Part shown: positions 1-18,903 of the stretch, one piece after another | How the letters are laid out: each line of letters opens with the position of its first letter | How positions within the stretch are numbered: the stretch's first letter is position 1 | Source: an uncultured virus (IMG/VR IMGVR_UViG_3300027747_004519) | Taxonomy: Duplodnaviria; Heunggongvirae; Uroviricota; Caudoviricetes | Strand: one strand, 5' to 3' | IMG/VR virus record: IMGVR_UViG_3300027747_004519 | DNA length: 20,000 nucleotides | Position numbers and translations under genes: made by a program | Notes under the pieces: generated by a model | Seen by the model: the letters and a program-made list of their open reading frames with translations, nothing else | Told to the model about the DNA's origin: nothing | Databases searched by the model: none

Positions 1-2
1 CA

Positions 3-5407: not shown

Positions 5408-5869
5408 ATGTCGATTGAACTATTCAAAGCTGACCTTGACGATTTGATATTAATAGCTCACCTAGTAACCCATCCAACCAAAGCGCTCAATCGTAGAGAG
5501 CAGCTACTTACTAGGATTCTGTGGCAGGCTGACAGCAGGCAGATAGAGGGTAGATTTTTGCAAAACCTTGGCTCAATTAACAGGTTGCAGGCAGAATTGG
5601 TCAAAGCCCATGGCGCTCTGGTATACGTCAAGAGCGATCATAGCCAGCGCTTTTGCCAGAGAATGTACTCGATAGATACAAGCAGTTGGGATAATCGTTT
5701 TGCCGGCAACGGATTCCACCAAGATTTAAAACGAGAATACCGCAGGCAGATTGACGCGGCGCTGGCACAATTTAACAAAGATCTCTTGGAGTTACTACAG
5801 CAGGAAATATCCAAGCATTACCCGTACATCTGGGGGTACATTGAATCTTCTGCGTATTTCTCCAGATAG
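5408..5869 (+). CDS. Hypothetical protein
   Basis: 153-aa ATG ORF filling the gap, TAGAAT -10-like hexamer upstream (5361), ends right at a terminator hairpin. No family recognised. Confidence 0.65.
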   Translation: MSIELFKADLDDLILIAHLVTHPTKALNRREQLLTRILWQADSRQIEGRFLQNLGSINRLQAELVKAHGALVYVKSDHSQRFCQRMYSIDTSSWDNRFAGNGFHQDLKREYRRQIDAALAQFNKDLLELLQQEISKHYPYIWGYIESSAYFSR

Positions 5870-5871
5870 GC

Positions 5872-5895
5872 AAAAAAAATCCCCCTTTCGGGGGA
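5872..5895 (-). terminator. Intrinsic terminator of the 54-aa gene
   Basis: Minus strand TCCCCC-GAAA-GGGGGA followed by a T run. Confidence 0.85.
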
Positions 5896-5904
5896 GTCTG
5901 TGGA

Positions 5905-6069
5905 CTACAGCCAGGGCCACCAACCTCTGGCTTTGAGCTCCCTGATGGAAGCTTGTGCGCTACCCAAGTCGGGAGCTTGTGGCTCGGGCTCGCCTTTAAG
6001 ACGACGGGCAGTGCGGGCTACTTGTTCTTGCTGAACGAGGTCTAGGATTTCTTCAGGTGCGGTAAACAT
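5905..6069 (-). CDS. 54-aa small protein not in the ORF track (MFTAPEEILDLVQQEQVARTARRLKGEPEPQAPDLGSAQASIRELKARGWWPWL)
   Basis: ATG preceded by an AAGGAGA RBS, own promoter and terminator. The paralogue at 18222..18383 differs mostly by synonymous third-position changes. Confidence 0.85.
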   Translation of the reverse strand: MFTAPEEILDLVQQEQVARTARRLKGEPEPQAPDLGSAQASIRELKARGWWPWL

Positions 6070-6101
6070 GAGCGGTATCTCCTTATCGGGCTTATATATA
6101 T

Positions 6102-6130
6102 ATAATATGCGATATACCCTAGAAAATCAA
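6102..6130 (-). promoter_or_regulatory. Sigma70-type promoter for the 54-aa gene
   Basis: TTGATT-17 bp-TATTAT, preceded by ACCTA. Member of a six-copy promoter family. Confidence 0.75.
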
Positions 6131-6415
6131 TAGGTATTTATACCTAATTTTAGGTATTTTCTTATAAACTTTCTTATATATTCCTAGATATTTTAAGATT
6201 TTACTTATGTATAGCGATAATTGTATTGATAAACGTACGAATACCCGAAAAATACATAAGATATTCTGTCGATTTTGCTAAAACTCATCAGGATTTTGTA
6301 TATCTGTTGCTATGTATCAATACAGTCATTACAATATATAAGCAAAATCTTAAAATATTTGAAAATACATAAGATATCCTATAAAAAAATATTCAAAATT
6401 AGGTATAAATACCTA

Positions 6416-6444
6416 TTGATTTCCTAGGGTATATCGCATATTAT
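6416..6444 (+). promoter_or_regulatory. Sigma70-type promoter for the ParB-N-like gene
   Basis: TTGATT-17 bp-TATTAT. A leader hairpin follows (GGCG..GAGG-AAATG-CCTC..CGCC, ~6450-6474). Confidence 0.75.
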
Positions 6445-6506
6445 ATATAGGCGAAAGAGGAAATGCCTCACGCCACCCGTACCTTAACAATTTATAGGAA
6501 ACCATC

Positions 6507-6809
6507 ATGCGTTATACTACCGCCGACGTTAAAGACCTTTTTTCCGTTGTTCCCGCTAGCGAGTTTAACAAAACCGATATCGAGGAATTAGCCCAGAGTA
6601 TCCTGCAAACCGGTGGCTGTCTAGCCCGACCCATCATCCTCAAGCAGATTCACCTAGAATCCCTTGAAGTGGTTGCAGGGCACCTCAGCTACCACGCAGC
6701 AGTCAAAGCCCGCGAGTTGGATCCTAGAAAGTGCGAGATGATCAACGCCTTCGTGGTGTCCGAAGATCAAATCGAGACTATCAAGTCTCAGCTTGCCATC
6801 TACAACTAA
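6507..6809 (+). CDS. Stand-alone ParB/Srx N-terminal-like domain protein (cyanobacterial type)
   Basis: IEELAQSILQTGG..PIILKQ..LEVVAGH..YHAAVKARE.DPRK.EMINAFVV closely resembles ParB-N-like proteins of cyanobacteria. It lacks the GxRR arginine patch and any HTH. AGGA RBS. Confidence 0.75.
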   Translation: MRYTTADVKDLFSVVPASEFNKTDIEELAQSILQTGGCLARPIILKQIHLESLEVVAGHLSYHAAVKARELDPRKCEMINAFVVSEDQIETIKSQLAIYN

Positions 6810-6815
6810 ATACCT

Positions 6816-6844
6816 TAAAACCCCTCCACTAACGAGGGGTTTTA
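6816..6844 (+). terminator. Intrinsic terminator (possibly bidirectional) after the ParB-N-like gene
   Basis: TAAAACCCCTC-CACTAAC-GAGGGGTTTTA. Confidence 0.7.
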
Positions 6845-6867
6845 TAATACCTACAAGGAGAAATTAC

Positions 6868-7206
6868 ATGGGATTATCACAATCAGAAGAACTGCAAATT
6901 GCAGCAGCATCCGAGCTTATCAATCAAGGAATTGCGCTCATCGTGCCAGAAAAAGCAATATACCAGGCTACCTACAAGGCTATATGCTATTGGTCAGTAC
7001 TGGATGAAAACTTTATTACCAGCGCTGAAATTGCCAAGCGCACTGAGCAAGCCAGGGGGTTAGCGACCTTGCCCGGTCAGATTTCGCACATCCATATCTA
7101 CTTGAGGATACTCCAAGCCAATGGGGTATCTATCAAGTGTGAAGAAAAGCAAGTGCGAGGCAAGCCAAAGTTATGGGCTAGCTCAGGCACATCTTCTGGG
7201 CAATAG
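6868..7206 (+). CDS. Putative winged-helix DNA-binding protein, 112 aa, paralogue of 17519..18181
   Basis: Start reassigned to ATG 6868 (AAGGAG RBS); the track's TTG start would read through the terminator. ITSAEIAKR..HIYLRILQANGVSI..LW suggests HTH plus wing. Confidence 0.65.
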   Translation: MGLSQSEELQIAAASELINQGIALIVPEKAIYQATYKAICYWSVLDENFITSAEIAKRTEQARGLATLPGQISHIHIYLRILQANGVSIKCEEKQVRGKPKLWASSGTSSGQ

Positions 7207-7855
7207 AGCTATTGAGCACTCTGGCACTGGGACAATTGCCAGCCATTACCAAAGAGAGCTCCGCAGTATCAATGTAGCCTCCACGAATCCAGTAGGGGGC
7301 TATATTTTCAGCTTTTACATTGCCGTGGATCTTGCCCACTGGCAAATAGTGCGGACAATCGTCATCCTCAAAGCTTGTATTGCAAATTGGACAGTAAGTT
7401 TGTTTATCGCTAAAGCCACCGATAGAAGCGTTAATTTTTCGGTTGTATTGCAGATCGTTAGTAATCGGGTGAGAGGTTTCCGTGACAACGTGGCACAGCA
7501 ACTGATACAGTCCCTCTTGTTCTAGAATCTTGCTATCAATCTCGGGTCTAGGTGAGCGAGAAAGCATATACTCTTTAAGCTCAGGCGAGGGATTGGCATA
7601 ATGCAATAGTGTTGCATCGTACACAAAACCGCACTGCTTGAGAACATCTTCCCAATCGTGATCTAACATTAGTGGCTTGCCAGGGTAAGTGCGGGCCATC
7701 TGCTTAATGCTTGGCAAATCCCACCGAAACAAATCACAATGCAACAGATTATTACTAGCCAGGATATGAAAAGTACTAATGTCAGAATCGCTATATTCTG
7801 GGTGTCCATGCGGACGAAAACTATTAATTTTATTTAAAGTATCTGGATTTATCAT
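7178..7855 (-). CDS. Prohead (capsid maturation) protease with a Cys-rich insert
   Basis: GKPLMLDHD (His), NASIGG (Ser) and AELSLV motifs typical of HK97/herpes-clan phage proteases, with a CPIC...CPH insertion. Follows the portal and minor head genes. Confidence 0.75.
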   Translation of the reverse strand: MINPDTLNKINSFRPHGHPEYSDSDISTFHILASNNLLHCDLFRWDLPSIKQMARTYPGKPLMLDHDWEDVLKQCGFVYDATLLHYANPSPELKEYMLSRSPRPEIDSKILEQEGLYQLLCHVVTETSHPITNDLQYNRKINASIGGFSDKQTYCPICNTSFEDDDCPHYLPVGKIHGNVKAENIAPYWIRGGYIDTAELSLVMAGNCPSARVLNSSIAQKMCLS

Positions 7856-8522
7856 AAATTTGCTCTATAAGTATATCTAAACTATTATAGAGCAAACGTT
7901 CTTTAGGCATAGTATAGCTCTGGCTAAATTCAAAGTAGCACCGGCAATGGGAGCGACACTCACACTTTTCACCAACTGCTGGTAGTGAGCCCATAGGTTG
8001 CCAGCCAGCTTCAGCGTATTTTGGGCAATCAGCGCAGGGCTCTTTAGAGCTCAGTAACCTGCGCTCCCACTTATAACCAGCGTCTGCATAAGAGTCCCTA
8101 GTTGCATTATTGAAAACAGTATGGGCAGCTTGTAAATACTGATTAGCCCTAGCTTGAATCTGGGCATCCGAAAGCTTGCCAGCATGCACATCTCGAGTGA
8201 AATTGCGCAAGAAAGTATATTGCTTTTGCAAATGGCGCCCTACGTTTGCCCAATCCGAAGTTGTAGCGGTGGGATTGGCAACTTTGTATGAACAGACCGT
8301 CACTTCCCTGATCGCATCAGCCAACTTGTTTTCCCAAGCAGCAATAGGGATTTTGCCAGAGCTATAATCTTGGTTTATCTGGGCAAAAGTACCCTTGTAG
8401 CTATCGATAAAATTCTGAGTGGCATCTCGCACTTTCGAGGTAGAAATGAACTGTCCTTTTTTGTTGCCATCTGTGTAGTGGTAGCGCTGAGTGCGTTTGT
8501 TAAAAGAGAAGTTAGGAGACAC
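7830..8522 (-). CDS. Phage head morphogenesis / minor head protein (Mu gpF / SPP1 gp7-like)
   Basis: C-terminal YKWERR..PCADC....P....CECRSHCRC Cys cluster; position between portal and protease; GTG start with GGAG RBS. Confidence 0.7.
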   Translation of the reverse strand: MSPNFSFNKRTQRYHYTDGNKKGQFISTSKVRDATQNFIDSYKGTFAQINQDYSSGKIPIAAWENKLADAIREVTVCSYKVANPTATTSDWANVGRHLQKQYTFLRNFTRDVHAGKLSDAQIQARANQYLQAAHTVFNNATRDSYADAGYKWERRLLSSKEPCADCPKYAEAGWQPMGSLPAVGEKCECRSHCRCYFEFSQSYTMPKERLLYNSLDILIEQIYDKSRYFK

Positions 8523-9423
8523 AAGCCATCTCCAGTTGTTTGACAGGGAAAAGCTCTGGAAAGCATAAGCGCTGCTTTTTATAAAGATCTAGTATGTAAG
8601 GATCTTGGCAGTTAGAATCTTTAATCCAAATGGACTCAGTGCGCTTTTTGTCTAGGTCTTGTCGCTTAGCTGCGCTCATCGTGGCAGCAAAATCTACTCT
8701 AGCCCAATCTGCCGGCACAACATCGTTAGGATAGCAACTCAATACAAATGAGCCTTTGATGTTTTTAAGTGTATCAATAAGGTCAATAAAATCCTCTCTG
8801 GTATAACCAGCGTAATGACCTTGATCTGCATCAATATAAGGCGGATCTATATAAAAAAGAGTTTGAGGACTATCCCATCTTTTAATGCAAGCTAGCGCGT
8901 CTTCGTTGCTAATATGCGTTTGGGCAATTCGCTCTAATACTGCTTTGAGCCTTGCTTTGTGGTTATTAAAAGTTATTGCCTCATTGTGACTTTTAACGCT
9001 GGTTCTCCAGCCTCCAAACATTTTGTTTGCAAAGCTCATATTGCATTGCAGATAGACTGCCCAAGCAATATCTAAAGGATTATTTGAGGTTCGCTCTTTT
9101 AATATTTTTCTTGCTTTCTTGTGGTCGCTTTGGCTATATAGCGTTGCGTCAATTCTGGCAAAGAACTGCTCTGGCTGCTCTTTAGCCACTCGGTACATTG
9201 TTATAAGATCGTCATTAACGACGTTAATGACCTCACGATAATTATCGTTGTTTCCTGTGTGTAAATAGGGTTTGGCAAAAAGCATCGTTGCGCCTCCACA
9301 GAATGGCTCAACATAGACTGTATGCTGTGGAAAATGGGGCAGTATTTTTGAGACTAATCTTTGCTTGCCTCCATAGTAGGAGACAATCGGTTTATGATGC
9401 ACTTTTGCTATTGTCATCTTCAA
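8512..9423 (-). CDS. DNA adenine methyltransferase, D12/Dam-like class (start may be ATG at 9417)
   Basis: YYGGK, YVEPFCGG, FYIDPPY and FVLSCY motifs. The usual NDxN motif reads NVVN here. Confidence 0.9.
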   Translation of the reverse strand: MKMTIAKVHHKPIVSYYGGKQRLVSKILPHFPQHTVYVEPFCGGATMLFAKPYLHTGNNDNYREVINVVNDDLITMYRVAKEQPEQFFARIDATLYSQSDHKKARKILKERTSNNPLDIAWAVYLQCNMSFANKMFGGWRTSVKSHNEAITFNNHKARLKAVLERIAQTHISNEDALACIKRWDSPQTLFYIDPPYIDADQGHYAGYTREDFIDLIDTLKNIKGSFVLSCYPNDVVPADWARVDFAATMSAAKRQDLDKKRTESIWIKDSNCQDPYILDLYKKQRLCFPELFPVKQLEMACVS

Positions 9424-9592
9424 TCTCAGCTTCTACAAGGTTTTTAAATTCATCCGGAGCGTGTTGCTGCCATGCTTTGAGCGCCTCGGATATCACCTCT
9501 GGAGTCAGTTTAGATTTGGCGCTGAGATCATGAAACGAGCCCAAGCCTTCGTCTTCGTTGCTCTGCTGGTTCAATATTGGATTGCTGCTCAT
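9392..9592 (-). CDS. 66-aa hypothetical protein overlapping the portal 3' end
   Basis: ATG with GAAGGAG RBS 9 nt upstream. Fills the portal-methylase gap. Acidic, helical-looking sequence. Confidence 0.65.
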   Translation of the reverse strand: MSSNPILNQQSNEDEGLGSFHDLSAKSKLTPEVISEALKAWQQHAPDEFKNLVEAEIEDDNSKSAS

Positions 9593-10799
9593 TTGGTTGT
9601 GCTCCTTCGTTTATTAATCCAGTTTGTTGAATGTCCCAGATGGGCCACTCTATCCTATAGCGCCCATTTTCTAGATACCAATCGTAGCCCTTGCGCAATA
9701 CTAGTTCAGTGTCGCAAACCTGCTTGATAGCCTTGGATAGGATTGAGCACCAAGACTGACGCATCCTGCCATATTTGCGGGCAGGTTCACCGGCAATATC
9801 CCGAGCTCCGGTATTATCTAGCCCAGGGAAAAACCACACTGGAAAGCCAGCGGGTATAATTTCGTATTTCCAATAATTGCAAACTTCAATCAAATTTCCT
9901 AGGTTTGGACTGGAGCTTTGAAGCATTTTAAGCTCTGTATTATTGAATAAGAACAAATCTGTAATGATCCCATCTAGCTGGCGGTTCTGGTAACTCTGTA
10001 TATAAATTTGGCGATCCTGTTCGTCAAACTCGGGTGGTAATACATGCAAAATTGGATTTACACCTAAAGCTTTAGCTGCTTGGGCTAGAGCCAATGTTGC
10101 TTCTTTGAGATTGCCCCAAGCTTGCAGCGATTGCGCAAAAATCGATTGACCATAGAGAAACTGTCTATCGTGGCGCAAATGAACTATCTGGCAAGCGTCA
10201 AATTCTGCATCAGGATCGCGCGAGCTCATAAAGCGTCTTTGGTCAAATCCCTCTAGAAATCCTTGGTCTGTTTCACGCCTGAAAATCTCCCAAGTAGGGA
10301 GGTACAGCAAATTAGAGACGCCATAAGTACTGCCGTCTTTTTCTACCCCAATTTCTAGGAAGCTATCGCCATAGCTTAGAAATTGCTTTTGCGCTTTTTC
10401 CAATTTGTCGCCACCGATGACCCATTGGTCAATTGATTCTTTGCGGTTTACTAAATCGTTTAGTATAGCCTTTGTTTCTGGGTTAATTGGCTCGGTTTTT
10501 TTGCGATCAATAAATTCGCTAATCTGCCAACCCATGTCGTCCCCATCCGCACTAGCAAATGTATCGTCTATAGCTGCAGATATAGAATGCCTTGCCTCAT
10601 AGCACCAATTTACTAGCTCGATTAGCTCCTTGCCTTTGATGGGATCGCGAACGCTAGATTCTAAGATTTCCGTATCATAATTTCTTAGCACACTAGCATA
10701 CACTTGGCTTAGCGGTCGCTGTGAGCCTTGCACCGAAGGCTGAGCGCCGGTGGGCGCGACATCAAATATACTGAGTTGTTTTTTAGCTTGAGGAATCAT
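9528..10799 (-). CDS. Phage portal protein
   Basis: 423 aa with LSYGDSFLEI, LLYLPTWEIFR and QIVHLRH..LYGQSIF (HK97-type portal 'G.AF..', 'IIH.R....YG.S' motifs). Lies upstream of the head genes. Confidence 0.85.
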   Translation of the reverse strand: MIPQAKKQLSIFDVAPTGAQPSVQGSQRPLSQVYASVLRNYDTEILESSVRDPIKGKELIELVNWCYEARHSISAAIDDTFASADGDDMGWQISEFIDRKKTEPINPETKAILNDLVNRKESIDQWVIGGDKLEKAQKQFLSYGDSFLEIGVEKDGSTYGVSNLLYLPTWEIFRRETDQGFLEGFDQRRFMSSRDPDAEFDACQIVHLRHDRQFLYGQSIFAQSLQAWGNLKEATLALAQAAKALGVNPILHVLPPEFDEQDRQIYIQSYQNRQLDGIITDLFLFNNTELKMLQSSSPNLGNLIEVCNYWKYEIIPAGFPVWFFPGLDNTGARDIAGEPARKYGRMRQSWCSILSKAIKQVCDTELVLRKGYDWYLENGRYRIEWPIWDIQQTGLINEGAQPNEQQSNIEPAEQRRRRLGLVS

Positions 10800-11085
10800 C
10801 GTTTCTGGGGTAAATCACGCTAGGCTCATGCCCGTTGGAATTGGCTTTAATAAAATGCAAGTCAGTTTCGATTTGAGATATATCTCTTTCTACCGCGGAA
10901 AGCTTGATTTGAGTCACTTCTAGGTAATTAGTAATTTTCGTAATAGCGTTCCAGTTTTGCTGCGAAACTTCGTAGAGCCTTTCAATTCGGATATTTTGCT
11001 GCTCAATCTGTTTGGATAAGCTACCACTGAGAGTAAAGCCACATCCTAGAATCGAAAGGAGCAGTGTAATGAATTCGTAGTTCAC
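10783..11085 (-). CDS. Membrane-anchored coiled-coil protein (holin-like or lysis accessory candidate)
   Basis: N-terminal hydrophobic helix (FITLLLSILGCGFTL) followed by a coiled coil. Divergent from the endolysin and overlaps the portal start. Confidence 0.5.
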   Translation of the reverse strand: MNYEFITLLLSILGCGFTLSGSLSKQIEQQNIRIERLYEVSQQNWNAITKITNYLEVTQIKLSAVERDISQIETDLHFIKANSNGHEPSVIYPRNDDSSS

Positions 11086-11155
11086 TGGAATAAAAAGTAA
11101 ATATATTAATATTATTAGTATACATGTAATTGAATTTTAGTAATAACTTACTGCC

Positions 11156-11968
11156 ATGACAACTATTGCACAAATAATTGCTGAAAAGATAGCCTTCCCA
11201 TTGCCCAAAGCTGATAATGAATTTTTGATTGAGCTCCAGCAAAAACTTAAAAATTTAAACTATTATTTTGATGCTGTAGATGGCGTTTACGGACCTAATA
11301 CAGCAGAGGCTTGGAAGCACTTTAAATTGGATCATTGCCAAGCCAGTTTTGATATATGCGGCCCAGGTAGCCTTGACTTACTCTTAAAAGCCGAGCCTAG
11401 GGTAGTTTCCCCTCTAGCAGCTGGCTATACCAATTTGTGGAATGCCTGCTCTGTTAATAGCGGCAAGATTGATGATTGCGATTGGGTGATTAACCGTAAA
11501 TTTATACCCAACAAAGGATTCTATGACGCGGTCGAAAAAGCTACTAGAGTGCCTTGGTACGTGGTAGCTGTATTGCATGCGAGAGAAAGCGATTGTGATT
11601 TTAGAACTCACTTGCACAATGGGGATCCTCTTAGTGCTAGAACAGTCCATGTGCCAGCAGGTAGACCCACTTGGGGTAAGCCTCCTTACAAGTGGTACGA
11701 GAGTGCAATTGACGCTCTGCAAGAAAACGGTATAGCCAATAACCGCAATTGGTCTATTGCCAATACTTTAGAAAAGATAGAGCGCTACAACGGCACAGGC
11801 TATTTCAATAAAGGTATTAATAGTCCATATGTTTGGGCAGGTACTAACCAGTATTCACGTGGCAAATACGTAGAAGATGGACGCTATAGTTCATCTGCTG
11901 TAGATAATCAATTGGGATGCGCAGCCTTGCTAAAACGCTTAGAGGCTAAGGGTCTGGTTAAATTTTAA
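11156..11968 (+). CDS. Endolysin: peptidoglycan-binding domain plus lysozyme-family catalytic domain (COG5526-like)
   Basis: LQQKL..VDGVYGPNTAEAWKHF matches PG_binding_1. VPWYVVAVLHARES, HLHNGDPL, ERYNGTGY, SPYVWAGT and GKYVEDG match the catalytic family. Confidence 0.9.
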   Translation: MTTIAQIIAEKIAFPLPKADNEFLIELQQKLKNLNYYFDAVDGVYGPNTAEAWKHFKLDHCQASFDICGPGSLDLLLKAEPRVVSPLAAGYTNLWNACSVNSGKIDDCDWVINRKFIPNKGFYDAVEKATRVPWYVVAVLHARESDCDFRTHLHNGDPLSARTVHVPAGRPTWGKPPYKWYESAIDALQENGIANNRNWSIANTLEKIERYNGTGYFNKGINSPYVWAGTNQYSRGKYVEDGRYSSSAVDNQLGCAALLKRLEAKGLVKF

Positions 11969-12003
11969 ATAATAATATCTTTGGTAGGATTTAGAAATAA
12001 GTT

Positions 12004-12282
12004 ATGTCGCAGATCATGCTATTTTTAAGCGGTACTATCAAAGATATTAATTTGCAAAATCAAACTATTGAAATTGCAAGTTGCAGCAGAATTTACCAAG
12101 GCGCATTTAATATTTTGCCAGAGAATATGCCTTTAAAATTGGGCTTGATGGCTCATTTTAAAGGAATCAAACTAGATAGCCAAACTCTAGCAATAAGCGA
12201 GATTAGCTGGCAATATCCAGTGTTTAAACCGGTGGGTTGGGATTGCCGTCACAAGATTTTTACTGGTATTTATTATGTTTGA
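12004..12282 (+). CDS. Hypothetical protein (possible OB-like beta barrel)
   Basis: 92 aa with LSGTIKDIN..TIEI..LKLG..FKG..LAISEI. Overlaps the next gene. Confidence 0.55.
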   Translation: MSQIMLFLSGTIKDINLQNQTIEIASCSRIYQGAFNILPENMPLKLGLMAHFKGIKLDSQTLAISEISWQYPVFKPVGWDCRHKIFTGIYYV

Positions 12283-12733
12283 TTTTTCGCTCAAATCTGA
12301 AGCGCAATTTGTGGGAGATATTCTCAATCAATTACCTAATGCTACTTTGACTTTTAAAGATGCCAAGGATACTGGCACAATTGATATTATCTATCAAGCT
12401 GATGGAAATCCAGTTATTGACTCCGCTGATATACAAACTACTACGCTCTCGCTGTATCTTGTGCAAAGGGCAATACCCGGAGGTATCTTTGATGTCAGTC
12501 GGGGGGCGGATCTCGAAACTGTCTATTTTGAGGGCAGGCTAGTAGATCCAAAGACATACCCTTTGCCAATTCAAGCGCAAGGGGATATCTTAGCCATTAT
12601 CAATGGGCAACAAGGTAGGGTAACCAGCGTGAGAGCTTTTAGCACTCCCACAGCCCAAGCTTTTAATTATGATTTGCAGATGGGACAAAAGCTGGGATTA
12701 TTTGTGCAGTTCTTTCAAGGCACATCTAGCTAA
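12275..12733 (+). CDS. Hypothetical protein, possibly virion neck/head-closure
   Basis: 152-aa beta-rich ORF overlapping the upstream gene. The function is a guess from size and composition. Confidence 0.55.
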   Translation: MFDFSLKSEAQFVGDILNQLPNATLTFKDAKDTGTIDIIYQADGNPVIDSADIQTTTLSLYLVQRAIPGGIFDVSRGADLETVYFEGRLVDPKTYPLPIQAQGDILAIINGQQGRVTSVRAFSTPTAQAFNYDLQMGQKLGLFVQFFQGTSS

Positions 12734-13429
12734 TCATGTAAGGTGAGGGGGATAATTAAATTGCTTGCACAATTGATGATAGACAATGTCACAATTTTTA
12801 ACAAAATGATTGCTGCCATCTATTTGAGTTATATTCCAATCAATTTCGCCAGGAAAAGTATTGGGTTGAGCAAATAAATTTATCATTGTTTGATGGTATC
12901 CCACTAAGCTTTTTTGAGCGTGAAAACCATATTTTTCTTTTGGGGCAATAGACAATTTAAACTCTTCCAAATAAACTTGATTTTCCTCATAACTCATCGG
13001 TTCATACAATGGATCGATTGATGTTGGCACAAAGTCAGATAATTCTTTTTTTCTTTGATATCCAATTTCTGGGGGTATTGTCAATAAAAAAGTAATATCA
13101 GGAATACGCAAGGCTTTTTTAATGTTGCGTAAGTTTACCCAGTCCGTATTTGTGGAAGAACGCAAAAATTGCTGCACACAAAAAAACAAAAACCCTCGCT
13201 CAATAACCACTCGTTGCGAATCCTTTAAGCGTTGATTGATTGTTAAAAGATCTTCCATTAAATAACAATTGTTTCGTTCGCTGTCGCTAGTTTTTAAAAA
13301 ATAATATTTACGTGAGGGAAATTCTAGATATTCAGCTTTCCACAATTTTGCAATGTATTTAGCAATAGTAGTTTTGCCACTGCGATCACAACCTTCAACA
13401 CAGATAATCCAATTTTTTTGAGGTATCAT
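12734..13429 (-). CDS. Divergent thymidylate/dNMP kinase-like P-loop protein
   Basis: IICVEGCDRSGKTT Walker A, EFP, VVIER (variant of the DR motif), IPDITFLL, IDGS. Confidence 0.75.
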   Translation of the reverse strand: MIPQKNWIICVEGCDRSGKTTIAKYIAKLWKAEYLEFPSRKYYFLKTSDSERNNCYLMEDLLTINQRLKDSQRVVIERGFLFFCVQQFLRSSTNTDWVNLRNIKKALRIPDITFLLTIPPEIGYQRKKELSDFVPTSIDPLYEPMSYEENQVYLEEFKLSIAPKEKYGFHAQKSLVGYHQTMINLFAQPNTFPGEIDWNITQIDGSNHFVKNCDIVYHQLCKQFNYPPHLT

Positions 13430-13479
13430 ATTTTTCTACTGATTACTTATTAACCTATTGCAGTTCTTCCAAAGCACAT

Positions 13480-13875
13480 CTAGTTAGATGGTTTTCTATA
13501 TCTATAAGCCGGCTTGATATATAAATCATCTATTTCCTCGGCAAGGTTGCAGCTCTCTACAATTATTGGCTTAACAAACAAGCTTACTAGTTGCATATCA
13601 TTTAGTGTGAAGCTACCGCTAAGCGCCACTTTGCTAGGATTGCGCCTTTTTCCTATACGCCAAACTGGGAGCCCATCAGCATCCACAGATTCATGCACAA
13701 CCTGGTCAAAAAACTTTAAAAGCTCAGTATTATCACAAGCTTTATCCAATAGCAAATAGCGTACCTCTGGATGATTGATCAAAAAATTAATAATCAAGTT
13801 AGGCTCATTGAGTATGCTGTGGGCTTTGTTGGTACCTAGCGGATATACCACCGCGACGTCAAATCTTTTGAACAC
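13480..13875 (-). CDS. Hypothetical protein between the two kinases
   Basis: 131 aa, overlaps the end of the upstream kinase, same strand. Confidence 0.6.
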   Translation of the reverse strand: MFKRFDVAVVYPLGTNKAHSILNEPNLIINFLINHPEVRYLLLDKACDNTELLKFFDQVVHESVDADGLPVWRIGKRRNPSKVALSGSFTLNDMQLVSLFVKPIIVESCNLAEEIDDLYIKPAYRYRKPSN

Positions 13876-14425
13876 AATATTGCTCCATATCCTGTACCAT
13901 AAGCTCTGTTACGGACTTGCTGGCATCCAAGGTCTGGAAATTCCAACCCAGCTGTCGCAGGCTAGCTATAGCCTCACCGTAAGCTTCAAGGGCTTTTACT
14001 TGGTTAGCATAGCTCTCAATCTCGGGCACGGGTTCCCCTCTATAGCACGCGCGCTCCATAATTCTCTGCTGAGCTTTTTCAGGCGAAAGCGACATGAGAT
14101 AGGTGATATCAGGCACGATTAGCCCGCGGGATAGTTTTATCCAAGTGTGGGTTTTCACCTGCGCGTTGCTCAATTTTTCGTAGGCTAGATGGCTTGGCAG
14201 ATACCTATCTAATACTACCTTCTCGCAGTCTCTTATCTTGTCCTGAATTCCGTAGAAATCCGCCATATGTAGCATGGCATTTGTGTAGTCGCAATCGGTT
14301 TTATTGATGTAGTAATACTCGCTAGGGCATTTAATATAAGTGGCATTCCAAGCCCTAGAGACCCTAATTGCCAGCGTGGTTTTCCCAACTCCATCTATTC
14401 CCTCAAAGCAGATAATCTTGGTCAT
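13859..14425 (-). CDS. tmk: Thymidylate kinase (dTMP kinase)-like protein
   Basis: IICFEGIDGVGKTT, VVLDRYLPSHLAYE, VPDITYLM..PE.A.QRI.ER and LDASKS are canonical dTMP kinase motifs. Confidence 0.82.
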   Translation of the reverse strand: MTKIICFEGIDGVGKTTLAIRVSRAWNATYIKCPSEYYYINKTDCDYTNAMLHMADFYGIQDKIRDCEKVVLDRYLPSHLAYEKLSNAQVKTHTWIKLSRGLIVPDITYLMSLSPEKAQQRIMERACYRGEPVPEIESYANQVKALEAYGEAIASLRQLGWNFQTLDASKSVTELMVQDMEQYCVQKI

Positions 14426-14470
14426 TTTTTGCGAGTTGTCTTGATTAATTTTCTTATTGTATCAAGCAAC

Positions 14471-14493
14471 AAAAAAGGACTCTTTCGAGTCCT
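14471..14493 (-). terminator. Intrinsic terminator
   Basis: Minus strand AGGACTC-GAAA-GAGTCCT followed by a T run. Confidence 0.85.
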
Positions 14494-14501
14494 CGGCAGT
14501 T

Positions 14502-14801
14502 TTAGTGGTTTGCGTTTTGTCTAGCCACCATTTGCAACAGAATCGCCCGAGTAACGCCTTTGTCCACAGCAGCTCTTGGGTTATTGTATATTTTGCTTTT
14601 CCAAATCTTACCTGAACCATTTAGCGTTAATTGAACATAATATTCATCTATACTCACGCAAACCAATTTAAAGCGACCTGTGTTGCCTTTAAGCCCTACT
14701 AAAGGCAAAAAGTCTCCCACTGTTTTTTTCCAGTTGCGCATAAAAGCTTTATTTGCCAATTTTTGGTTGTCTGATAAATATGTTTTAGTAGCGGTTGTCA
14801 T
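14502..14801 (-). CDS. Hypothetical basic protein (cassette gene)
   Basis: 99 aa with AGGAG RBS, own promoter and terminator. Confidence 0.8.
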   Translation of the reverse strand: MTTATKTYLSDNQKLANKAFMRNWKKTVGDFLPLVGLKGNTGRFKLVCVSIDEYYVQLTLNGSGKIWKSKIYNNPRAAVDKGVTRAILLQMVARQNANH

Positions 14802-14916
14802 GATTCAATCTCCTGTATTTCTTAACTTTCTTCTATTATCGGGTATATACCCTGAAAAGTCAATAGGTTTTTAAAAAAAAGTTTTGGTCAAAAAAAAAGA
14901 GGCTCGGTTGAGCCTC
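14794..14916 (-). repeat. Terminator-promoter-RBS module, copy 1
   Basis: Near-identical to 15303..15423. Contains the GAGGCTC-AACC-GAGCCTC+T terminator, TTGACT(14863-14858)-17-GATAAT(14840-14835), the palindrome GGGTATATACCC, AGGAG and ATGACAAC. Confidence 0.92.
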
Positions 14917-14923
14917 GGATGTG

Positions 14924-15310
14924 TTAAGGATTTTCGTTAAGCCATTTGCGCACTTCGGCTGCGCCTATTGGACCAAATCGATCAATTGGATATTCGTTGG
15001 GGTTTTTGGCGTAGTGCGACTCAAACCAGCTTAGGGGCTTGGTGCGATTGGACAGAAAGAATTGAGCGGAGGTTTCATAGTAGAGAGCGCGTTGGACAAG
15101 GCGCAACGCTCCAAAAGTGGAGCCTGTGTGGGTCTGTGTGTTTGCACAAACCTCAATTGAGATAAATAATTTTTGTTTGATTTGCTTAGCCCAAGCTACT
15201 TGCTTGGGAGTACCTACCAACTGGGTAGGACAATCGGTAATCTCTGCCAACTTAATCGAATCTTTGCTTCTTTGAGTGTAGTTAGCGTTGTAGTGAGTGA
15301 AAGTTGTCAT
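14924..15310 (-). CDS. Hypothetical phage protein with an 'L.G(S/T).KQ.AWA..I' motif (cassette gene)
   Basis: 128 aa. LVGTPKQVAWAKQIK is a recurrent motif of small phage proteins. Has its own promoter, RBS and terminator. Confidence 0.8.
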   Translation of the reverse strand: MTTFTHYNANYTQRSKDSIKLAEITDCPTQLVGTPKQVAWAKQIKQKLFISIEVCANTQTHTGSTFGALRLVQRALYYETSAQFFLSNRTKPLSWFESHYAKNPNEYPIDRFGPIGAAEVRKWLNENP

Positions 15311-15423
15311 GATTGAATCTCCTGTATTTCTTAACTTTCTTAATTATCGGGTATATACCCTGAAAAGTCAATAGGTTTTGGAAAAAAGTTTTTGGGCAAA
15401 AAAAAGAGGCTCGGTTGAGCTTC
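15303..15423 (-). repeat. Terminator-promoter-RBS module, copy 2
   Basis: TTGACT(15371-15366)-17-GATAAT(15348-15343), terminator at 15398..15424, same RBS and first codons as copy 1. Confidence 0.92.
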
Positions 15424-15475
15424 TAAAATGTTGAATTTTAACCGGAGGTGATTAATTATTATGTTTTTTACTGCA

Positions 15476-16090
15476 CTATCTGCATCTAATACAACACATA
15501 TTACCAGCCTCAACATTCCCATACGTATTATATTGTGCACCACATTCCCAGCACTCTTCTAGTACTTTAGTTAGTTCGTCTTTAAATTGTATTTTTTCGC
15601 TAGGTAGTCCGACAATTTCTATAGCTTGCTCGTTAGTAATTTGTTGTATTACCCCTTGTGATACCTTTAACCAAACTTCGGACTTATTACCTGAACCGCT
15701 ATATGAGACAGACTGATAGATACCATCTTCTTTAATCAGATACTTTTTACGTTTACCGTCTTGATCAACAGCATTAACAAACTTTCTAGAATAGCCATAT
15801 TGTAGGTCTTGACCTTCAATTAAAGCGATCCAGCCTTTTTTATTCGCATAGTCAGACGTCTGATAATTTGATTCTATTTCAACAGGTTTTAAGCCCTTTT
15901 CTATCTCGCTGTTAAATTTTTCTATAGAATTCCACTGTTCCAATTTCCCTTTCTCAATAATTGATATAGCAGTGTATCTAATATCAGTATCTTTTAAAGT
16001 AGTCCAAACTGATATCTCTGGGTGAACTTTTACCCTGTTATTGTCTGTAGTAAAACTTAAACCTGAGCGAGTACAAATTTTGGTATACAT
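15476..16090 (-). CDS. Hypothetical protein with a C-terminal Cys cluster (CWEC...CCIRC) (cassette gene)
   Basis: 204 aa with AGGAG RBS. The central KGWIALIEGQDLQYGYSRKFV resembles a recurrent small phage domain. Confidence 0.8.
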   Translation of the reverse strand: MYTKICTRSGLSFTTDNNRVKVHPEISVWTTLKDTDIRYTAISIIEKGKLEQWNSIEKFNSEIEKGLKPVEIESNYQTSDYANKKGWIALIEGQDLQYGYSRKFVNAVDQDGKRKKYLIKEDGIYQSVSYSGSGNKSEVWLKVSQGVIQQITNEQAIEIVGLPSEKIQFKDELTKVLEECWECGAQYNTYGNVEAGNMCCIRCR

Positions 16091-16116
16091 TTTATTCTCC
16101 TAATCTGTCGTATTTT

Positions 16117-16173
16117 CTGTATTTTTTAACTTTCTATAGCTTAAGCGATATTCTAGAGAAAGTCAATAGGTTT
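16117..16173 (-). promoter_or_regulatory. Diverged third promoter/leader module
   Basis: ACCTATTGACT(16166-16161)-17-TAAGCT, then the leader AGAAAGTTAAAAAATACAG, similar to AGAAAGTTAAGAAATACAG of copies 1 and 2. Confidence 0.7.
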
Positions 16174-16248
16174 CCAAAATAAAAGATATTAGCCCATGTG
16201 GTACGCTAAAAGAATAACCCGATTAGCTGGCTGCCAGCCTTCGACAAT

Positions 16249-16464
16249 ATGAATTTCTGGAAAATATTAGGAATAGGTGCGGCTATTACCGCTAGCACTG
16301 TAGATACCAAGGATCACAAAACTCAAGAAGCGCTAGGGCATATTAACAAGGTGATTAGCGTTCTCAAGCCAGTTAGTGACGCTGGTTTAATTAACGATCC
16401 AAAGGTAGCAGAGAGTGTCGATTTTCTCCACACTTTGGTAAGTGAATTGCGCAAGCCTCAATAG
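16249..16464 (+). CDS. Small hypothetical protein with hydrophobic N-terminus
   Basis: 71-aa ATG ORF, followed by a hairpin shared with the convergent gene. Confidence 0.6.
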   Translation: MNFWKILGIGAAITASTVDTKDHKTQEALGHINKVISVLKPVSDAGLINDPKVAESVDFLHTLVSELRKPQ

Positions 16465-16502
16465 GGCTATACTAAAATAGTCTCTTGCAGATTTTTTAGG
16501 TT

Positions 16503-16531
16503 AAGCCACCGGGTATAGCTCTCGGTGGCTT
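16503..16531. terminator. Probable bidirectional terminator between convergent genes
   Basis: AAGCCACCGGG-TATAGCT-CTCGGTGGCTT. Confidence 0.65.
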
Positions 16532-16538
16532 TGTCATT

Positions 16539-16844
16539 TTATTCAAGTATTGACGACAAAGTGGCAGAATTTACCTCTCGAATCAGTTCTGAGATGGACT
16601 GCTTACCTTTGCCACGTTTGGGTGTGCAAAGTGGTTTTGATGCAAAGTAGGTAGTGGAAACCTTAGTAAAGGGCTGGCTAGCTTGCACCTGCTCCCTTAT
16701 TAAGAGGGTATTGGGCTTAGCTTGCGCAATATAGACGGTTTCTGTGCAAACTGGTTGAGTTGATTTTTTGAGAGCTGTGATCATGTAGCTGTAGAAAGTC
16801 AAAAACATTAAAAACAAAATTACTTGAAGTATAAAGCGTTCCAT
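16539..16844 (-). CDS. Hypothetical membrane-anchored protein
   Basis: 101 aa with an N-terminal TM helix (FILQVILFLMFLTFYSYMI). AGGA RBS and an upstream promoter. Confidence 0.65.
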   Translation of the reverse strand: MERFILQVILFLMFLTFYSYMITALKKSTQPVCTETVYIAQAKPNTLLIREQVQASQPFTKVSTTYFASKPLCTPKRGKGKQSISELIREVNSATLSSILE

Positions 16845-16910
16845 GGTGCGAATATCCTATTGTAGCGATTAATTGTCCTAGCTTGTGTATCGAGTGGCTA
16901 GAATTTTTTC

Positions 16911-16940
16911 AGCTTACTCTAGTTTTCTTGAAAATGTCAA
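16911..16940 (-). promoter_or_regulatory. Sigma70-type promoter
   Basis: TTGACA-18 bp-TAAGCT, directly downstream of a terminator. Confidence 0.55.
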
Positions 16941-16946
16941 GCTACT

Positions 16947-16973
16947 AAAAAGCCCCTAGGGAACTAGGGGCTT
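16947..16973 (-). terminator. Intrinsic terminator
   Basis: Minus strand AAGCCCCTAG-TTCC-CTAGGGGCTTTTT. Confidence 0.8.
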
Positions 16974-16980
16974 GCTTCTC

Positions 16981-17403
16981 TTAAACCATATTGTGAAATT
17001 CTAACATAACAGGCTGATCGTCTTCAGGCACGTAATCCGCGCTGTCAATTGCCGAGTCATCGTCTTGATCTTCGTCATTGTCGATCATATTATTTTCAAT
17101 ACAAGTTTTGCTGAAATAACAATCCGTAGACATTTTGACGCAAGTATAGCCAGCGAGTGCTTCGTCCATTTGCCCTTCTAATCTTGCTATCTCGTTTTGA
17201 TCACATGCATTAGCAAAATCCATAGAAAACCAAGTGTTCACCACTTTTAAAATATTTGGCTGGTCAGGGTCAAGCCAGAGCTCTTTGCGAACTACGCCTG
17301 GTTGTTGAATTAGCCAAGTATCCCAGATTCTTTTCTCGGCTGCTATATAGGTAGGAATTGCCGCTTCTTCAATAAAGTAAGTTATTTTTTCGATGTAATA
17401 CAT
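16981..17403 (-). CDS. TIGR03792-like cyanobacterial protein (dimeric alpha-beta barrel / ABM-like) with an acidic tail
   Basis: IE..(F).I......YIAAEKRIWDTWL.QQPG..RKELWLDPDQPN...V..W matches my recollection of the TIGR03792 pattern. D-rich C-terminal extension. Confidence 0.7.
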   Translation of the reverse strand: MYYIEKITYFIEEAAIPTYIAAEKRIWDTWLIQQPGVVRKELWLDPDQPNILKVVNTWFSMDFANACDQNEIARLEGQMDEALAGYTCVKMSTDCYFSKTCIENNMIDNDEDQDDDSAIDSADYVPEDDQPVMLEFHNMV

Positions 17404-17518
17404 AGTTAGTAAAACAATAATCAGATTTACTAGTATTGTACCCTATGGCTTTTATTGGCAAAATGGCAGGTGCTCTCAGCTTGGGGTATAATTTTGGAAA
17501 ACTCAATCTAACAGGCAA

Positions 17519-18181
17519 ATGGCAAAATCAATACAATCGCGCACAGAAGTTTTTGACGCGGTATCCCAGATAATCTCGCAGAATATGGCGCTACCCGAGG
17601 CGGTATTGATTTCCACTGCTCGTAATTGCTTAAGGCTGTATGATCTGCTTACGAATTACCCACAAAGTACCACGGACTTATTTACAATCTACCAAAGCAG
17701 GTATAGCGAACCGCTAAATGCTCACAGGATATCTAGCCTTCTGATAGCCATGGTTAGAGCTGGCGCTCCCATAGTACGCAGGGTAGAGCGATCCGGGTTT
17801 CCCTCAAAGCATTTAAGCTATTGGCACTTAAGAAAAATCAGCAGCTATCCGCTCTTGTGCAAATCTGCCCAGAGCGAAGCGATAGCGATATTAGCAGAGC
17901 TACTGCGAGAAGGGATAAATTTGCTGCCTATCAAAAAAGCGCTGGCATATTCTACCCAAAAAGCGCTAGAAATCTATAGCCTGCTTAGCCCAGAGGGAGC
18001 GCATTCACCGGTAATTGCGGAAAAATACGAAGCGAGATATACCAGGGATGTTTCTTACTCGCTAGTGCAAAATACCTTACACACTCTGGCTAGACACGGC
18101 GCACCTATAGTAAAAACGCACGTACGCAGCACGAAACCAAGAGGTGGCGACATGCTGTATTGGTCTATCGATACGAGGTAA
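17519..18181 (+). CDS. Tandem two-domain putative winged-helix DNA-binding protein
   Basis: Internal duplication (LYDLL..Y.SRY..GAPIV..SYW and IYSLL..YEARY..GAPIV..LYW). Upstream TGGCAG-17-TATAAT. Confidence 0.7.
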   Translation: MAKSIQSRTEVFDAVSQIISQNMALPEAVLISTARNCLRLYDLLTNYPQSTTDLFTIYQSRYSEPLNAHRISSLLIAMVRAGAPIVRRVERSGFPSKHLSYWHLRKISSYPLLCKSAQSEAIAILAELLREGINLLPIKKALAYSTQKALEIYSLLSPEGAHSPVIAEKYEARYTRDVSYSLVQNTLHTLARHGAPIVKTHVRSTKPRGGDMLYWSIDTR

Positions 18182-18189
18182 TTATGGAC

Positions 18190-18213
18190 AAAAAAAATCC
18201 CCCTTTCGGGGGA
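18190..18213 (-). terminator. Intrinsic terminator of the 53-aa gene
   Basis: Identical hairpin to 5872..5895. Confidence 0.85.
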
Positions 18214-18221
18214 GGAGGAGG

Positions 18222-18383
18222 TTAGCGGGTCCACCACCCTCTGGCTTTGAGCTCCCTGATGGAAGCGTGGGCGCTACCCAAGTCAGGAGCTTGGGGCTCA
18301 GGTTCGCCTTTGAGTCGACGGGCAAAGCGCGCGACTTGCTCTTGCTGGGCGAGGTCTAGGATTTCTTCAGGTGCGGTAAACAT
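18222..18383 (-). CDS. 53-aa small protein not in the ORF track (MFTAPEEILDLAQQEQVARFARRLKGEPEPQAPDLGSAHASIRELKARGWWTR)
   Basis: AAGGAGA RBS, own promoter and terminator. Paralogue of 5905..6069. Confidence 0.85.
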   Translation of the reverse strand: MFTAPEEILDLAQQEQVARFARRLKGEPEPQAPDLGSAHASIRELKARGWWTR

Positions 18384-18414
18384 GGGACAATCTCCTTATC
18401 GGGCTAATATATAT

Positions 18415-18443
18415 ATTATCGGATATATTCCCTAAAAGATCAA
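18415..18443 (-). promoter_or_regulatory. Sigma70-type promoter for the 53-aa gene
   Basis: ACCTA-TTGATC-17-GATAAT. Confidence 0.7.
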
Positions 18444-18564
18444 TAGGTATTTATACTTAATTTTGGGTATTTTCCTATAAACTTTCTTATATGTTTTTGA
18501 ATATTTTGCGATTTTACTTATATATAACAATAATTGTATTGATATTTGTACGGGTATCTAGAAA

Positions 18565-18865
18565 ATATATAAGATATTCTGTCATTTTTGCCAGAAATTA
18601 TCAGGAATTCGTATATAAACTGTACGGGTATTTGTACGGATTGTCGTACCGGTTATCGTACCGGCAAGGAGATATATAAGATATTCTGTCGATAGCAGCC
18701 GGATTCATCAGGTTTCCGTATGGATATTGTATTGATAATCGTATCGAGTGTCGTACCGGTTATCGTATTGAAATAGGATATATAAGATATTCTGTCGATA
18801 GAGGAAAAATTTATCAGGTTTTCATATGAGTATCGTATTGCTGATCGTACCGCCAGCTATACCGA
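18565..18865. repeat. Non-coding tandem array of about three 106-107-bp units with internal 11-12-bp GTA periodicity
   Basis: ATATATAAGATATTCTGTC at 18565, 18672 and 18778. TGTCGTACCGGTTATCGTA at 18642 and 18749. Confidence 0.88.
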
Positions 18866-18903
18866 TCATTGCATTATTAATTGATTTGTACGTCAATGCG
18901 AGC

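Follow-up and report, generated by a model that had tools for sequence, protein, structure and literature searches.

Introduction

The promoter-early stem-loops (PeSLs) of T4-type phages, known in RB49/phi1, T4/PST and KVP40/nt-1, are small composite units that pair a strong promoter of the sigma-70-like kind with a stem-loop able to terminate transcription, and they flank ORFans. Indels and replacements that distinguish close T4-type relatives are reported to arise through them, the crossovers having been mapped between the -10 region, the Shine-Dalgarno sequence and the ATG (PMC2839356; PMC4122927). Here we describe repeated modules of similar design in a 20,000 nt stretch of DNA (referred to as the window) from an uncultured tailed virus, IMG/VR record IMGVR_UViG_3300027747_004519. 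Each module contains a sigma-70-like promoter and a leader, and heads a small accessory gene (its cargo). The modules have a common anatomy, are dispersed over the genome and mosaic in sequence, and the cargo differs between related genomes with breakpoints inside the modules. We estimate at about three in four the probability that they form a PeSL-like system of insulated one-gene units, in which the repeated 5′ module and a matched 3′ terminator would act as short homologies for shuffling.

PeSLs had been proposed as an analogue in a preliminary description of the window, and the comparison proved right at the sequence level (PMC2839356; PMC4122927). Both kinds of element join a sigma-70-like promoter to an adjacent stem-loop (here read from sequence only) and carry seemingly non-essential ORFan cargo, which differs at seven of 12 positions between two viable-looking genomes in the present case. 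In both, indel and replacement junctions lie inside the units, in the same crossover zone, and the cassettes are insulated. There are also differences. The present phage is not of the T4 type: its relative G001 has a 79.7-kb genome, and the lineage encodes an integrase-like protein, a Cro/CI-like helix-turn-helix (HTH) protein, Ant, and a portal resembling that of Cylindrospermopsis phages. The module sequence is unrelated to that of PeSLs; the modules occur genome-wide, including the gap between the tail and portal genes, whereas PeSLs are packed in hyperplastic regions; three matched promoter/terminator types and operator-like palindromes are present; and the module reaches into a conserved leader and the first codons of the gene. 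A literature search did not find promoter/terminator-mediated shuffling described outside T4-type phages, passing mentions aside. New here are the non-T4, possibly temperate freshwater lineage, the genome-wide dispersion, the matched promoter/terminator sets, the mosaicism of sub-blocks and a shared upstream element. PeSL-type shuffling would thereby be extended to a different, possibly temperate cyanophage lineage of bloom-forming freshwater hosts.

Lambdoid morons are single accessory genes, some of atypical composition, that have their own promoter and terminator and are inserted between phage genes. The units described here are likewise autonomous, and the cargo of one module type (type A, see below) has a GC content of 0.50-0.59. 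Morons are not known to have a common repeated promoter/terminator family serving as a recombination handle. Dispersed-operator regulons, such as those of the C1 operators of phage P1 and the KorA/KorB operators of plasmid RK2, offer a second parallel: one cis element recurs at many promoters, and a ParB-family gene sits in an apparently autoregulated divergent locus. They differ in that the palindromes of the present modules vary by module type, and the ParB-like protein has no recognisable DNA-binding domain. With integrons the modules have in common arrays of one-gene cassettes of variable content. Here, however, neither an integrase nor attC/attI sites adjoin the cassettes, each cassette has its own promoter and terminator, and exchange would proceed by homology and not be site-specific.

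Six promoter modules in the window

The sequence ACCTATTGAY occurs as an exact match six times in the window, at 6126-6135(-), 6411-6420(+), 14859-14868(-), 15367-15376(-), 16162-16171(-) and 18439-18448(-); 0.06 copies would be expected, and none of 200 shuffled sequences reached six. Allowing one mismatch added no copy in the window, and a profile of the module core returned the same six sites and nothing else. Each copy forms the upstream edge of a promoter TTGAYN-17-(GATAAT/TATTAT/TAAGCT). Five of these promoters (TTGAYN-17-GATAAT/TATTAT) were among the 60 sites listed by a consensus promoter scan; the sixth, TTGACT-17-TAAGCT (16166->16138), was read directly from the sequence. The six motif copies of the preliminary description were thus borne out, and the positions it gave are correct as spans from the -35 to the -10 region. 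It had also noted that the two inverted promoters at 6.1 and 6.4 kb agree at 54/55 positions, that the 6.1 and 18.4 kb copies share their inner part (TATAAACTTTCTTATAT, present only at 6163 and 18476), and that the 18.4, 14.8 and 15.3 kb copies have a GATAAT -10 region in common; all three observations hold. When a degenerate 24-nt promoter pattern was searched for in IMG/VR and genome contigs, only single scattered matches, which we read as chance, were found apart from G001. A literature search for the motif as text returned unrelated primers only.

Downstream of each copy lies a shared leader with AGGAG, then an ATG 60-91 nt from the module start. The open reading frames (ORFs) that follow have lengths of 54, 100, 99, 128, 204 and 53 aa, in order of module position. 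A hairpin (-12 to -16 kcal/mol) and a U-run are found 3′ of all six, four of them detected in a consensus terminator scan. The 204-aa gene ends in a degenerate terminator copy. For the 100-aa ParB_N-like gene, the hairpin is followed by a weak U-tract, and an ORF with its own ribosome site (6868-7206) starts 22 nt further on. Five of the six units are thus clean one-gene cassettes, and the sixth may be bicistronic. The earlier view that every copy drives a single small gene closed by its own intrinsic terminator therefore agrees with the anatomy of five copies, and may not apply to the 100-aa unit.

The modules fall into types. In type A (6126-, 6411+ and 18439-) the palindrome TAGGTATAAATACCTA is set against the -35 region; type B modules (14859-, 15367- and 16162-) contain only the ACCTA half of this palindrome. 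Hybrids found elsewhere in the genome combine the type A palindrome with a type B-like -10 region and leader, and have no spacer palindrome.

A full module begins with the hairpin that terminates the preceding unit, followed in turn by a host-type (sigma-70-like) promoter, a conserved leader of ~30 nt with AGGAG and, often, the first 3-6 codons of the gene. The promoter has a -35 region extended to ACCTA-TTGAY, a 17-nt spacer that often includes an ATAT-centred palindrome, and a -10 region of the GATAAT, TATTAT or TAAGCT form. In the mechanism that we propose, each module would start an insulated transcript of one small accessory ORFan, ending at a terminator of the matching type. Since copies of both the 5′ module and the 3′ terminator occur around the genome and in related phages, they would provide two short landing pads for homologous recombination. 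Cargo could then be replaced, a cassette flanked by direct repeats could be gained or lost, or be copied to another module, and gene conversion could act patchwise between modules. Such matched promoter/terminator pairs would be natural ‘landing pads’ that could be used for engineering the phage.

Module positions and cargo in two related genomes

The window is part of a tailed-phage genome of ~80 kb from lake water, probably with a filamentous cyanobacterial host. It encodes a tail-fibre-like protein, a D12 adenine methyltransferase, an endolysin-like protein and two thymidylate-kinase-like proteins. The only matches of its 423-aa protein in a phage collection were to the portal region of two Cylindrospermopsis phages (35% identity). 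Together with the occurrence of the -35 motif in phage Cr-LKS4 (see below) and the freshwater metagenomes of origin, this makes the earlier term ‘cyanophage’ plausible, the host itself being deduced. Parts of the stretch were present in 13 DNA runs from seven freshwater/aquatic metagenome studies, with no RNA run listed among them. Deposited phages showed no DNA similarity to window 5800-6900. A portal search of metagenome contigs returned only a 6.7-kb piece identical to the window, and one covering one genome per species returned no relative. Contig L090 is identical to window 5598-12343. Rfam and tRNA scans of the window gave no match.

A close relative, G001 (IMG/VR; 79.7 kb, completeness rating 96%), is 84-96% identical, and is collinear with the window itself at 84-92% identity. 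Its genes code for an integrase-like protein, a Cro/CI-type HTH protein, an Ant-like protein, a primase/polymerase, ribonucleotide reductase, PhoH, a clamp, terminase and tail proteins; PHROG matches named no T4-type core module in it. Family scans recognised no RNA polymerase or sigma family among its 95 ORFs with a length of 55 aa or more (94 scanned directly, the 95th through its homologue at window 3337-5178). The host RNA polymerase is thus the likely reader of the module promoters. It may fire at them early. The lineage of the window itself was extended with two IMG/VR contigs: G003, which overlaps window 1-640 at 99% identity, and G002, whose modules and cargo are identical to those of G003 where the two have them in common.

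An nhmmer search with the module-core profile found 12 modules in G001 (nine with E<=1e-10 and three weaker), and 11 in the window lineage. Of the latter, the window contains six and G003 two; G002 has five, of which two are the same copies as those of G003 and were counted once, so that it adds three (two of these weak). The modules are therefore genome-dispersed. They neighbour a 1727-aa ORF, the Ant, clamp and terminase genes, lie upstream of nucleotide-kinase genes, and occur in the gap between the tail-fibre and portal genes and 3′ of the tail genes; as stated in the preliminary description, some do sit among the structural genes. Its general picture of a mosaic family of self-contained small-gene cassettes was also supported, the copies being sigma-70-type promoter/leader modules at the head of insulated cassettes.

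Eleven of the 12 module positions of G001 are matched in the window lineage. At five positions the cargo is orthologous (128 aa, 88% identity; 99 aa, 94%; 54/53 aa, 98%; 313/315 aa, 95%; and the ParB_N-like protein, 76%), while at seven of the 12 it differs. Four cargo pairs gave no BLASTP match (53 versus 75, 204 versus 170, 80 versus 135, and 82 versus 44 aa). In addition, G001 contains an extra cassette of 143 aa; the window lineage has an extra cargo gene of 100 aa together with a replaced stretch 5′ of that module; and a pair of 138 and 298 aa is 35% identical, with a 1019-bp insertion.

The cargo proteins range from 44 to 313 aa, and the only assignments obtained were a ParB_N domain and DUF5895. 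Pfam, PHROGs and NCBIfam named no other function, and PADLOC gave nothing. In the ESM Atlas the 54-aa protein had no useful match (best 0.75), nor does it have any functionally characterised relatives. The 100-aa ParB_N-like protein showed no DNA-binding domain. A search for the 204-aa cargo in IMG/VR returned no relative, and its protein family has only six members in a set of 5.8 billion proteins, one of them 90% identical and encoded on a 44.3-kb contig. If the proposed mechanism holds, the modules amount to a concrete map of accessory-gene exchange sites in such phages, and flag the accessory genes to be tested first for host-takeover or counter-defence roles.

Breakpoints and sequence conversion at the modules

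At positions where the cargo differs, homology is lost close to the start codon, from 13 nt upstream to 23 nt downstream of it, and is regained within the terminator hairpin or shortly 3′ of it. The extra cassette of G001 is flanked by a 127-nt stretch that aligns to both neighbouring modules, a signature of exchange between direct repeats. Structural differences were defined as all gaps of 100 bp or more that either genome showed in the collinear BLAST chains; four smaller gaps and three G002 rows repeating G003 events were dropped. Eight of the resulting 21 events have a breakpoint within a module ±40 nt. With random placement of the 12 modules, the mean was 0.8 for uniform placement and 2.0 for intergenic placement only, and 0 of 20000 permutations reached eight in either case (p<=5e-5). 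The comparison of relatives for cargo swaps that break in the modules, a check suggested in the preliminary description, was thus positive (8/21 against 0.8-2.0, and 7/12 positions), in line with the earlier proposal that the repeats act as recombination handles.

The fact that the repeats bound one-gene cassettes could also point to a dedicated mobile-element system, such as integron-like cassettes, miniature inverted-repeat transposable elements or homing elements. However, no recombinase adjoins any of the clusters, and the sole integrase-like gene of G001 lies >40 kb from the type B cluster. The repeats are promoters and terminators and are not attC-like, and neither target-site duplications nor terminal inverted repeats were found around the cassettes. 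Such a system is very improbable.

Signs of patchwise conversion were found in several modules. G001 has one copy of the 54-aa cassette and the window has two. In the distal 75 columns, the copy of G001 agrees with the 6.1-kb copy at 72/74 positions; in the promoter it is identical to the 18.4-kb copy (75/75), and along the ORF it alternates between both window copies. The two divergent promoters, homogenised in the window (54/55), are unlike each other in G001. Type B and hybrid modules combine their upstream, spacer/-10 and leader sub-blocks in various ways, and the 128-aa gene has a different promoter/leader variant in the window and in G001.

These data bear on another explanation, in which the shared sequence is kept by selection for promoter and operator function under a common regulator, the cargo is merely dispensable and the repeats play no causal part. 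The palindromes found in the spacers and upstream regions (GGGTATATACCC, TAGGTATAAATACCTA and GGATATATCC) are almost confined to the modules and lie at usual repressor positions, the divergent type A locus looks autoregulatory, and 13 of the 21 structural differences lie off the modules. Judging by their position, these palindromes may be operators of a common regulator, at odds close to, or slightly below, even. A regulon would not account for module breakpoints far above the intergenic-placement expectation, for the direct repeat of 127 nt of module sequence that bounds the extra cassette, or for conversion tracts that cross both promoter and ORF. Matching of promoter and terminator types is unneeded for regulation alone. 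Further, the palindromes vary by module type, the hybrids have none in the spacer, and none of this kind lies beside the Cro/CI-type HTH gene of G001. We consider a regulon without shuffling unlikely. A link between the palindromes and this HTH gene was considered and rejected, since no such palindrome adjoins the gene.

Contigs of four metagenome runs (X2, X3, X4 and X6) were compared with window 5500-19500, and the PeSL-like shuffling that we favour is consistent with the joints found in them. Joints 14916/14918->16106/16120 were found in runs X4 and X3, one in each, with other letters between; two more were found in X6, 14499->16117 and 18184->18854, the last removing a whole type A cassette and its array. 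All ends of the four joints, which come from three runs of two further studies, fall in a terminator or a module leader. X6 also contains a backward joint between modules, 16177->15382 (45 nt on its short side), which an extra upstream cassette would explain equally well.

Several points weigh against this interpretation. Promoter activity, timing and co-regulation are deduced from nucleotide sequence. Accessory genes vary in any phage, and some enrichment at their promoters would arise without the modules being a substrate for recombination. The list of 21 events was curated by hand. Thirteen of the events lie outside the modules, which are therefore only one of several ways in which change occurs; a G001 segment of 842 bp that adjoins a type A array at its far end was counted as non-module. 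The full-length comparison covers two genomes only, and the ‘genome’ of the window lineage was pieced together from the window and two contigs of other samples, linked by the 640-nt overlap at 99% and by identical shared regions. The run contigs are de Bruijn assemblies, which break at repeats; the loose ends (16121, 14863, 14896 and 6383-6388) and the joints that link one type A locus to the other possibly reflect paralogous modules of one genome and were left uncounted.

Two changes illustrate the routes that bypass the modules. The D12-class methyltransferase gene (8512-9423) corresponds to a clean 894-bp insertion (8517-9410), with 2 bp between its flanks in G001; neither a module nor a repeat was seen at the ends 8517 and 9410. 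A 754-bp deletion (12704->13459) in three runs (X3, X4 and X6) removes the 231-aa thymidylate-kinase-like paralogue, and is bounded by an unrelated 28-nt direct repeat (12705-12732 and 13459-13486) at the 3′ ends of two neighbouring genes.

Type B modules

Type B modules usually have the palindrome GGGTATATACCC in the spacer, the leader GAAAGTTAAGAAATACAGGAGAT and the terminator GAGGCTCAACCGAGCCTC-U9. The hairpin and U-run lie 35-40 nt 5′ of the next -35 region, an arrangement that forms a composite terminator/promoter. All three copies of the window, with their cargo and terminators, are on the minus strand. The 14.8-kb module (14808..14868) contains ACCTA + TTGACT-17-GATAAT with the spacer palindrome GGGTATATACCC and the shared leader GAAAGTTAAGAAATACAGGAGAT. 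It is followed by a 99-aa ORFan (14502..14801; G001 orthologue, 94% aa identity) and by a terminator hairpin and U-run (14475..14494). The 15.3-kb module (15317..15376) is near-identical to it; its cargo is the 128-aa ORFan (14924..15310; G001 orthologue, 88% aa identity), closed by GAGGCTCAACCGAGCCTC and U9 (14899..14916) directly 5′ of the 14.8-kb promoter. The 16.1-kb module (16112..16171) is a variant, ACCTA + TTGACT-17-TAAGCT, with a leader of the same family. Its cargo, the 204-aa ORFan (15476..16090), has a GC content of 0.35, and an unrelated 170-aa ORF takes its place in G001. Homology to G001 resumes at its terminator, a degenerate type B hairpin with a U-run (15397..15424).

Unrelated cargo genes begin with the same codons (ATGACAAC..., MTT..., MNAITT... 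and MSQST...; window 14794-14801 and 15303-15310, G003 12471 and 17122), indicating that the exchanged unit extends a few codons into the ORF.

The type B terminator that closes the 170-aa cargo in G001 (~9490-9510; L086) keeps the stem but has a reversed loop (GGTT versus AACC), as if the hairpin had been flipped.

Type A modules and their arrays

Type A modules have the leader ATATATTAGCCCGATAAGGAG and the terminator CCCCCGAAAGGGGG-U8. Two of them form a divergent locus (6097..6449) made of two inverted arms of 135 nt, 84% complementary according to repeat analysis, with two outward-facing promoters. Motif and promoter scans placed the leftward promoter, ACCTA + TTGATT-17-TATTAT abutted at its -35 region by TAGGTATAAATACCTA, at 6102..6135 (minus strand). 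It heads the 54-aa ORFan (5905..6069, minus strand; GC 0.57; paralogue at 18222-18383), closed by the hairpin TCCCCCGAAAGGGGGA and U8 (5880..5895, minus strand), the terminator type that ends all type A cassettes. The rightward promoter, also ACCTA + TTGATT-17-TATTAT and found by the same scans (6411..6444, plus strand), heads the 100-aa protein, which has a ParB N-terminal domain only and is 76% identical to its G001 orthologue (6507..6809, plus strand); the hairpin that follows (6816..6844, plus strand; -16 kcal/mol, weak U-tract) is a possible attenuator before ORF 6868-7206. The third promoter, ACCTA + TTGATC-17-GATAAT (18415..18448, minus strand; motif and promoter scans), heads the 53-aa paralogue of the 54-aa gene (18222..18383, minus strand), closed by CCCCCGAAAGGGGG and U8 (18198..18219, minus strand). 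At this position G001 has an unrelated 75-aa ORF.

The GC content of type A cargo is 0.50-0.59 (window 5905-6069, 6507-6809 and 18222-18383; G001 6622-6849; G002 26428-26676), versus 0.39-0.41 for the genomes; type B cargo has 0.35-0.45. The high GC content of type A cargo is a moron-like trait, and it fits a reading in which the cassettes are morons of a temperate phage, lysogenic-conversion units expressed from a prophage rather than early lytic genes. Such units would be compatible with shuffling, and would differ from it in timing and purpose. The integrase-like protein (phrog_1, E 4e-11), the Cro/CI-type HTH protein and the Ant-like anti-repressor of G001 are in keeping with a temperate phage, each cassette has its own promoter and terminator, and the type A cargo stands out from a genome GC content of 0.41. 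However, no prophage copy was found in the portal search covering one genome per species, and the module 18-mer GTATAAATACCTATTGAY occurred in 596 Gb of prokaryote genomes as only 48 single scattered stretches, one of them in a cyanobacterial metagenome-assembled genome. Further, the sequences come from free contigs of freshwater metagenomes, and the type B cluster leads straight into nucleotide-metabolism genes. Expression from a prophage is accordingly possible but doubtful.

Arrays of ~107-nt units lie upstream of type A promoters (window 18535-18875 and 6160-6400; G001 6177-6560 and 51930-52300). Three tandem units 5′ of the 18.4-kb promoter (18564..18875) contain a ATATAAGATATTCTGTC box and YGTAYBG heptamers at 12-nt spacing. 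Each array unit has one ATATAAGATATTCTGTC box and 4-5 heptamers, and the arrays hold 12 of the 25 heptamers of the window; the number of units differs between metagenome runs. Boxes of the form A[TC]ATAAG[AT] concentrate at the type A loci (9/10 in the window and 15/22 in G001). The arrays resemble iterons or a centromere, and adjoin the ParB_N-only gene.

The long type A modules could be primarily DNA-level sites at which the adjacent ParB_N-like protein acts, for example as a partition centromere or as iterons of an origin, with the promoters secondary. Arrays are present at the type A loci of both genomes, a gene with a ParB N-terminal domain is under one type A promoter, and the A[TC]ATAAG[AT] boxes cluster at these loci. 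Yet the ParB-like protein has just 100 aa and no detected DNA-binding domain, and type B and hybrid modules have the promoter but no arrays. In addition, the X6 contig that is missing the whole 18.2-18.85-kb cassette and array shows this copy to be dispensable. We hold this explanation to be improbable.

An upstream element shared with unrelated cyanophages

The 18-mer GTATAAATACCTATTGAY was found in 39 IMG/VR stretches, versus three for a reversed control. Ten of the 39 belong to the present phage family, and 29 (25 distinct contexts) lie outside it. The latter include complete marine T7-like contigs, with a terminase 82% identical to that of Prochlorococcus podoviruses, in which two adjacent copies lie in a non-coding region. 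There, the element stands beside TAGTACAT(A/T)TGTAC palindromes, which we take to resemble the cyanobacterial LexA box. The element AGGTATAAATACCT-TTGAC recurs in unrelated phages, in records L126 (1960-2100), L092, L159 (1490-1560) and, as ACCTATTGAC, L158. Mastigocladus phage CHP58 contains AGGTATAAATACCT-TTGC twice. Cylindrospermopsis phage Cr-LKS4 has eight exact copies of ACCTATTGAC, each in a promoter TTGACA-17-TATAGT/TATCAT/TATATT; owing to an inverted duplication, five of the eight are unique.

No protein was common to the present phage and the three podovirus genomes tested, a weak terminase match aside. The marine copies of the 18-mer in podovirus contigs have no clear TAnnnT -10 region at 16-18 nt, and the function of the element there may therefore not be promoter-related. 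In host-order genomes (61-201 genomes from the order to which a Calothrix genome belongs), the words were no commoner than their reversed controls (49 versus 73, 37 versus 50, and 6 versus 12). An origin of ACCTA-TTGAC from host promoters was rejected, as no enrichment over the reversed control was seen, exact-word counts being a weak test for a degenerate site. A prophage candidate with three copies of ATACCTATTGAC in G146 (L156, G146:C5 280429-289084) was also discarded: it is an unrelated repeat of ~100 nt in a cyanobacterial chromosome, with no similarity to the phage.

Tentatively, and with more doubt than trust, the ACCTA edge, completed to TAGGTATAAATACCTA in type A and hybrid modules, might be a portable phage-specific promoter-proximal element found across unrelated cyanophages and read by a conserved cyanobacterial RNA polymerase or host factor. 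If so, very different cyanophages would have a takeover promoter signal in common, and the shared ACCTA/palindrome element, if functional, would offer a handle on how cyanophages recruit host transcription.

In the Cr-LKS4 record (L158; OQ625504.1 77000-98000), the region at ~77-84 kb is mirrored at 91-98 kb, duplicating the ACCTATTGAC promoters, and two annotated CRISPR arrays lie between the arms of the duplication. Finally, a 140-aa ORF of the window (16981-17403) scores above the cut-off for TIGR03792, an uncharacterised NCBIfam family (48.8 versus 45.75 bits).

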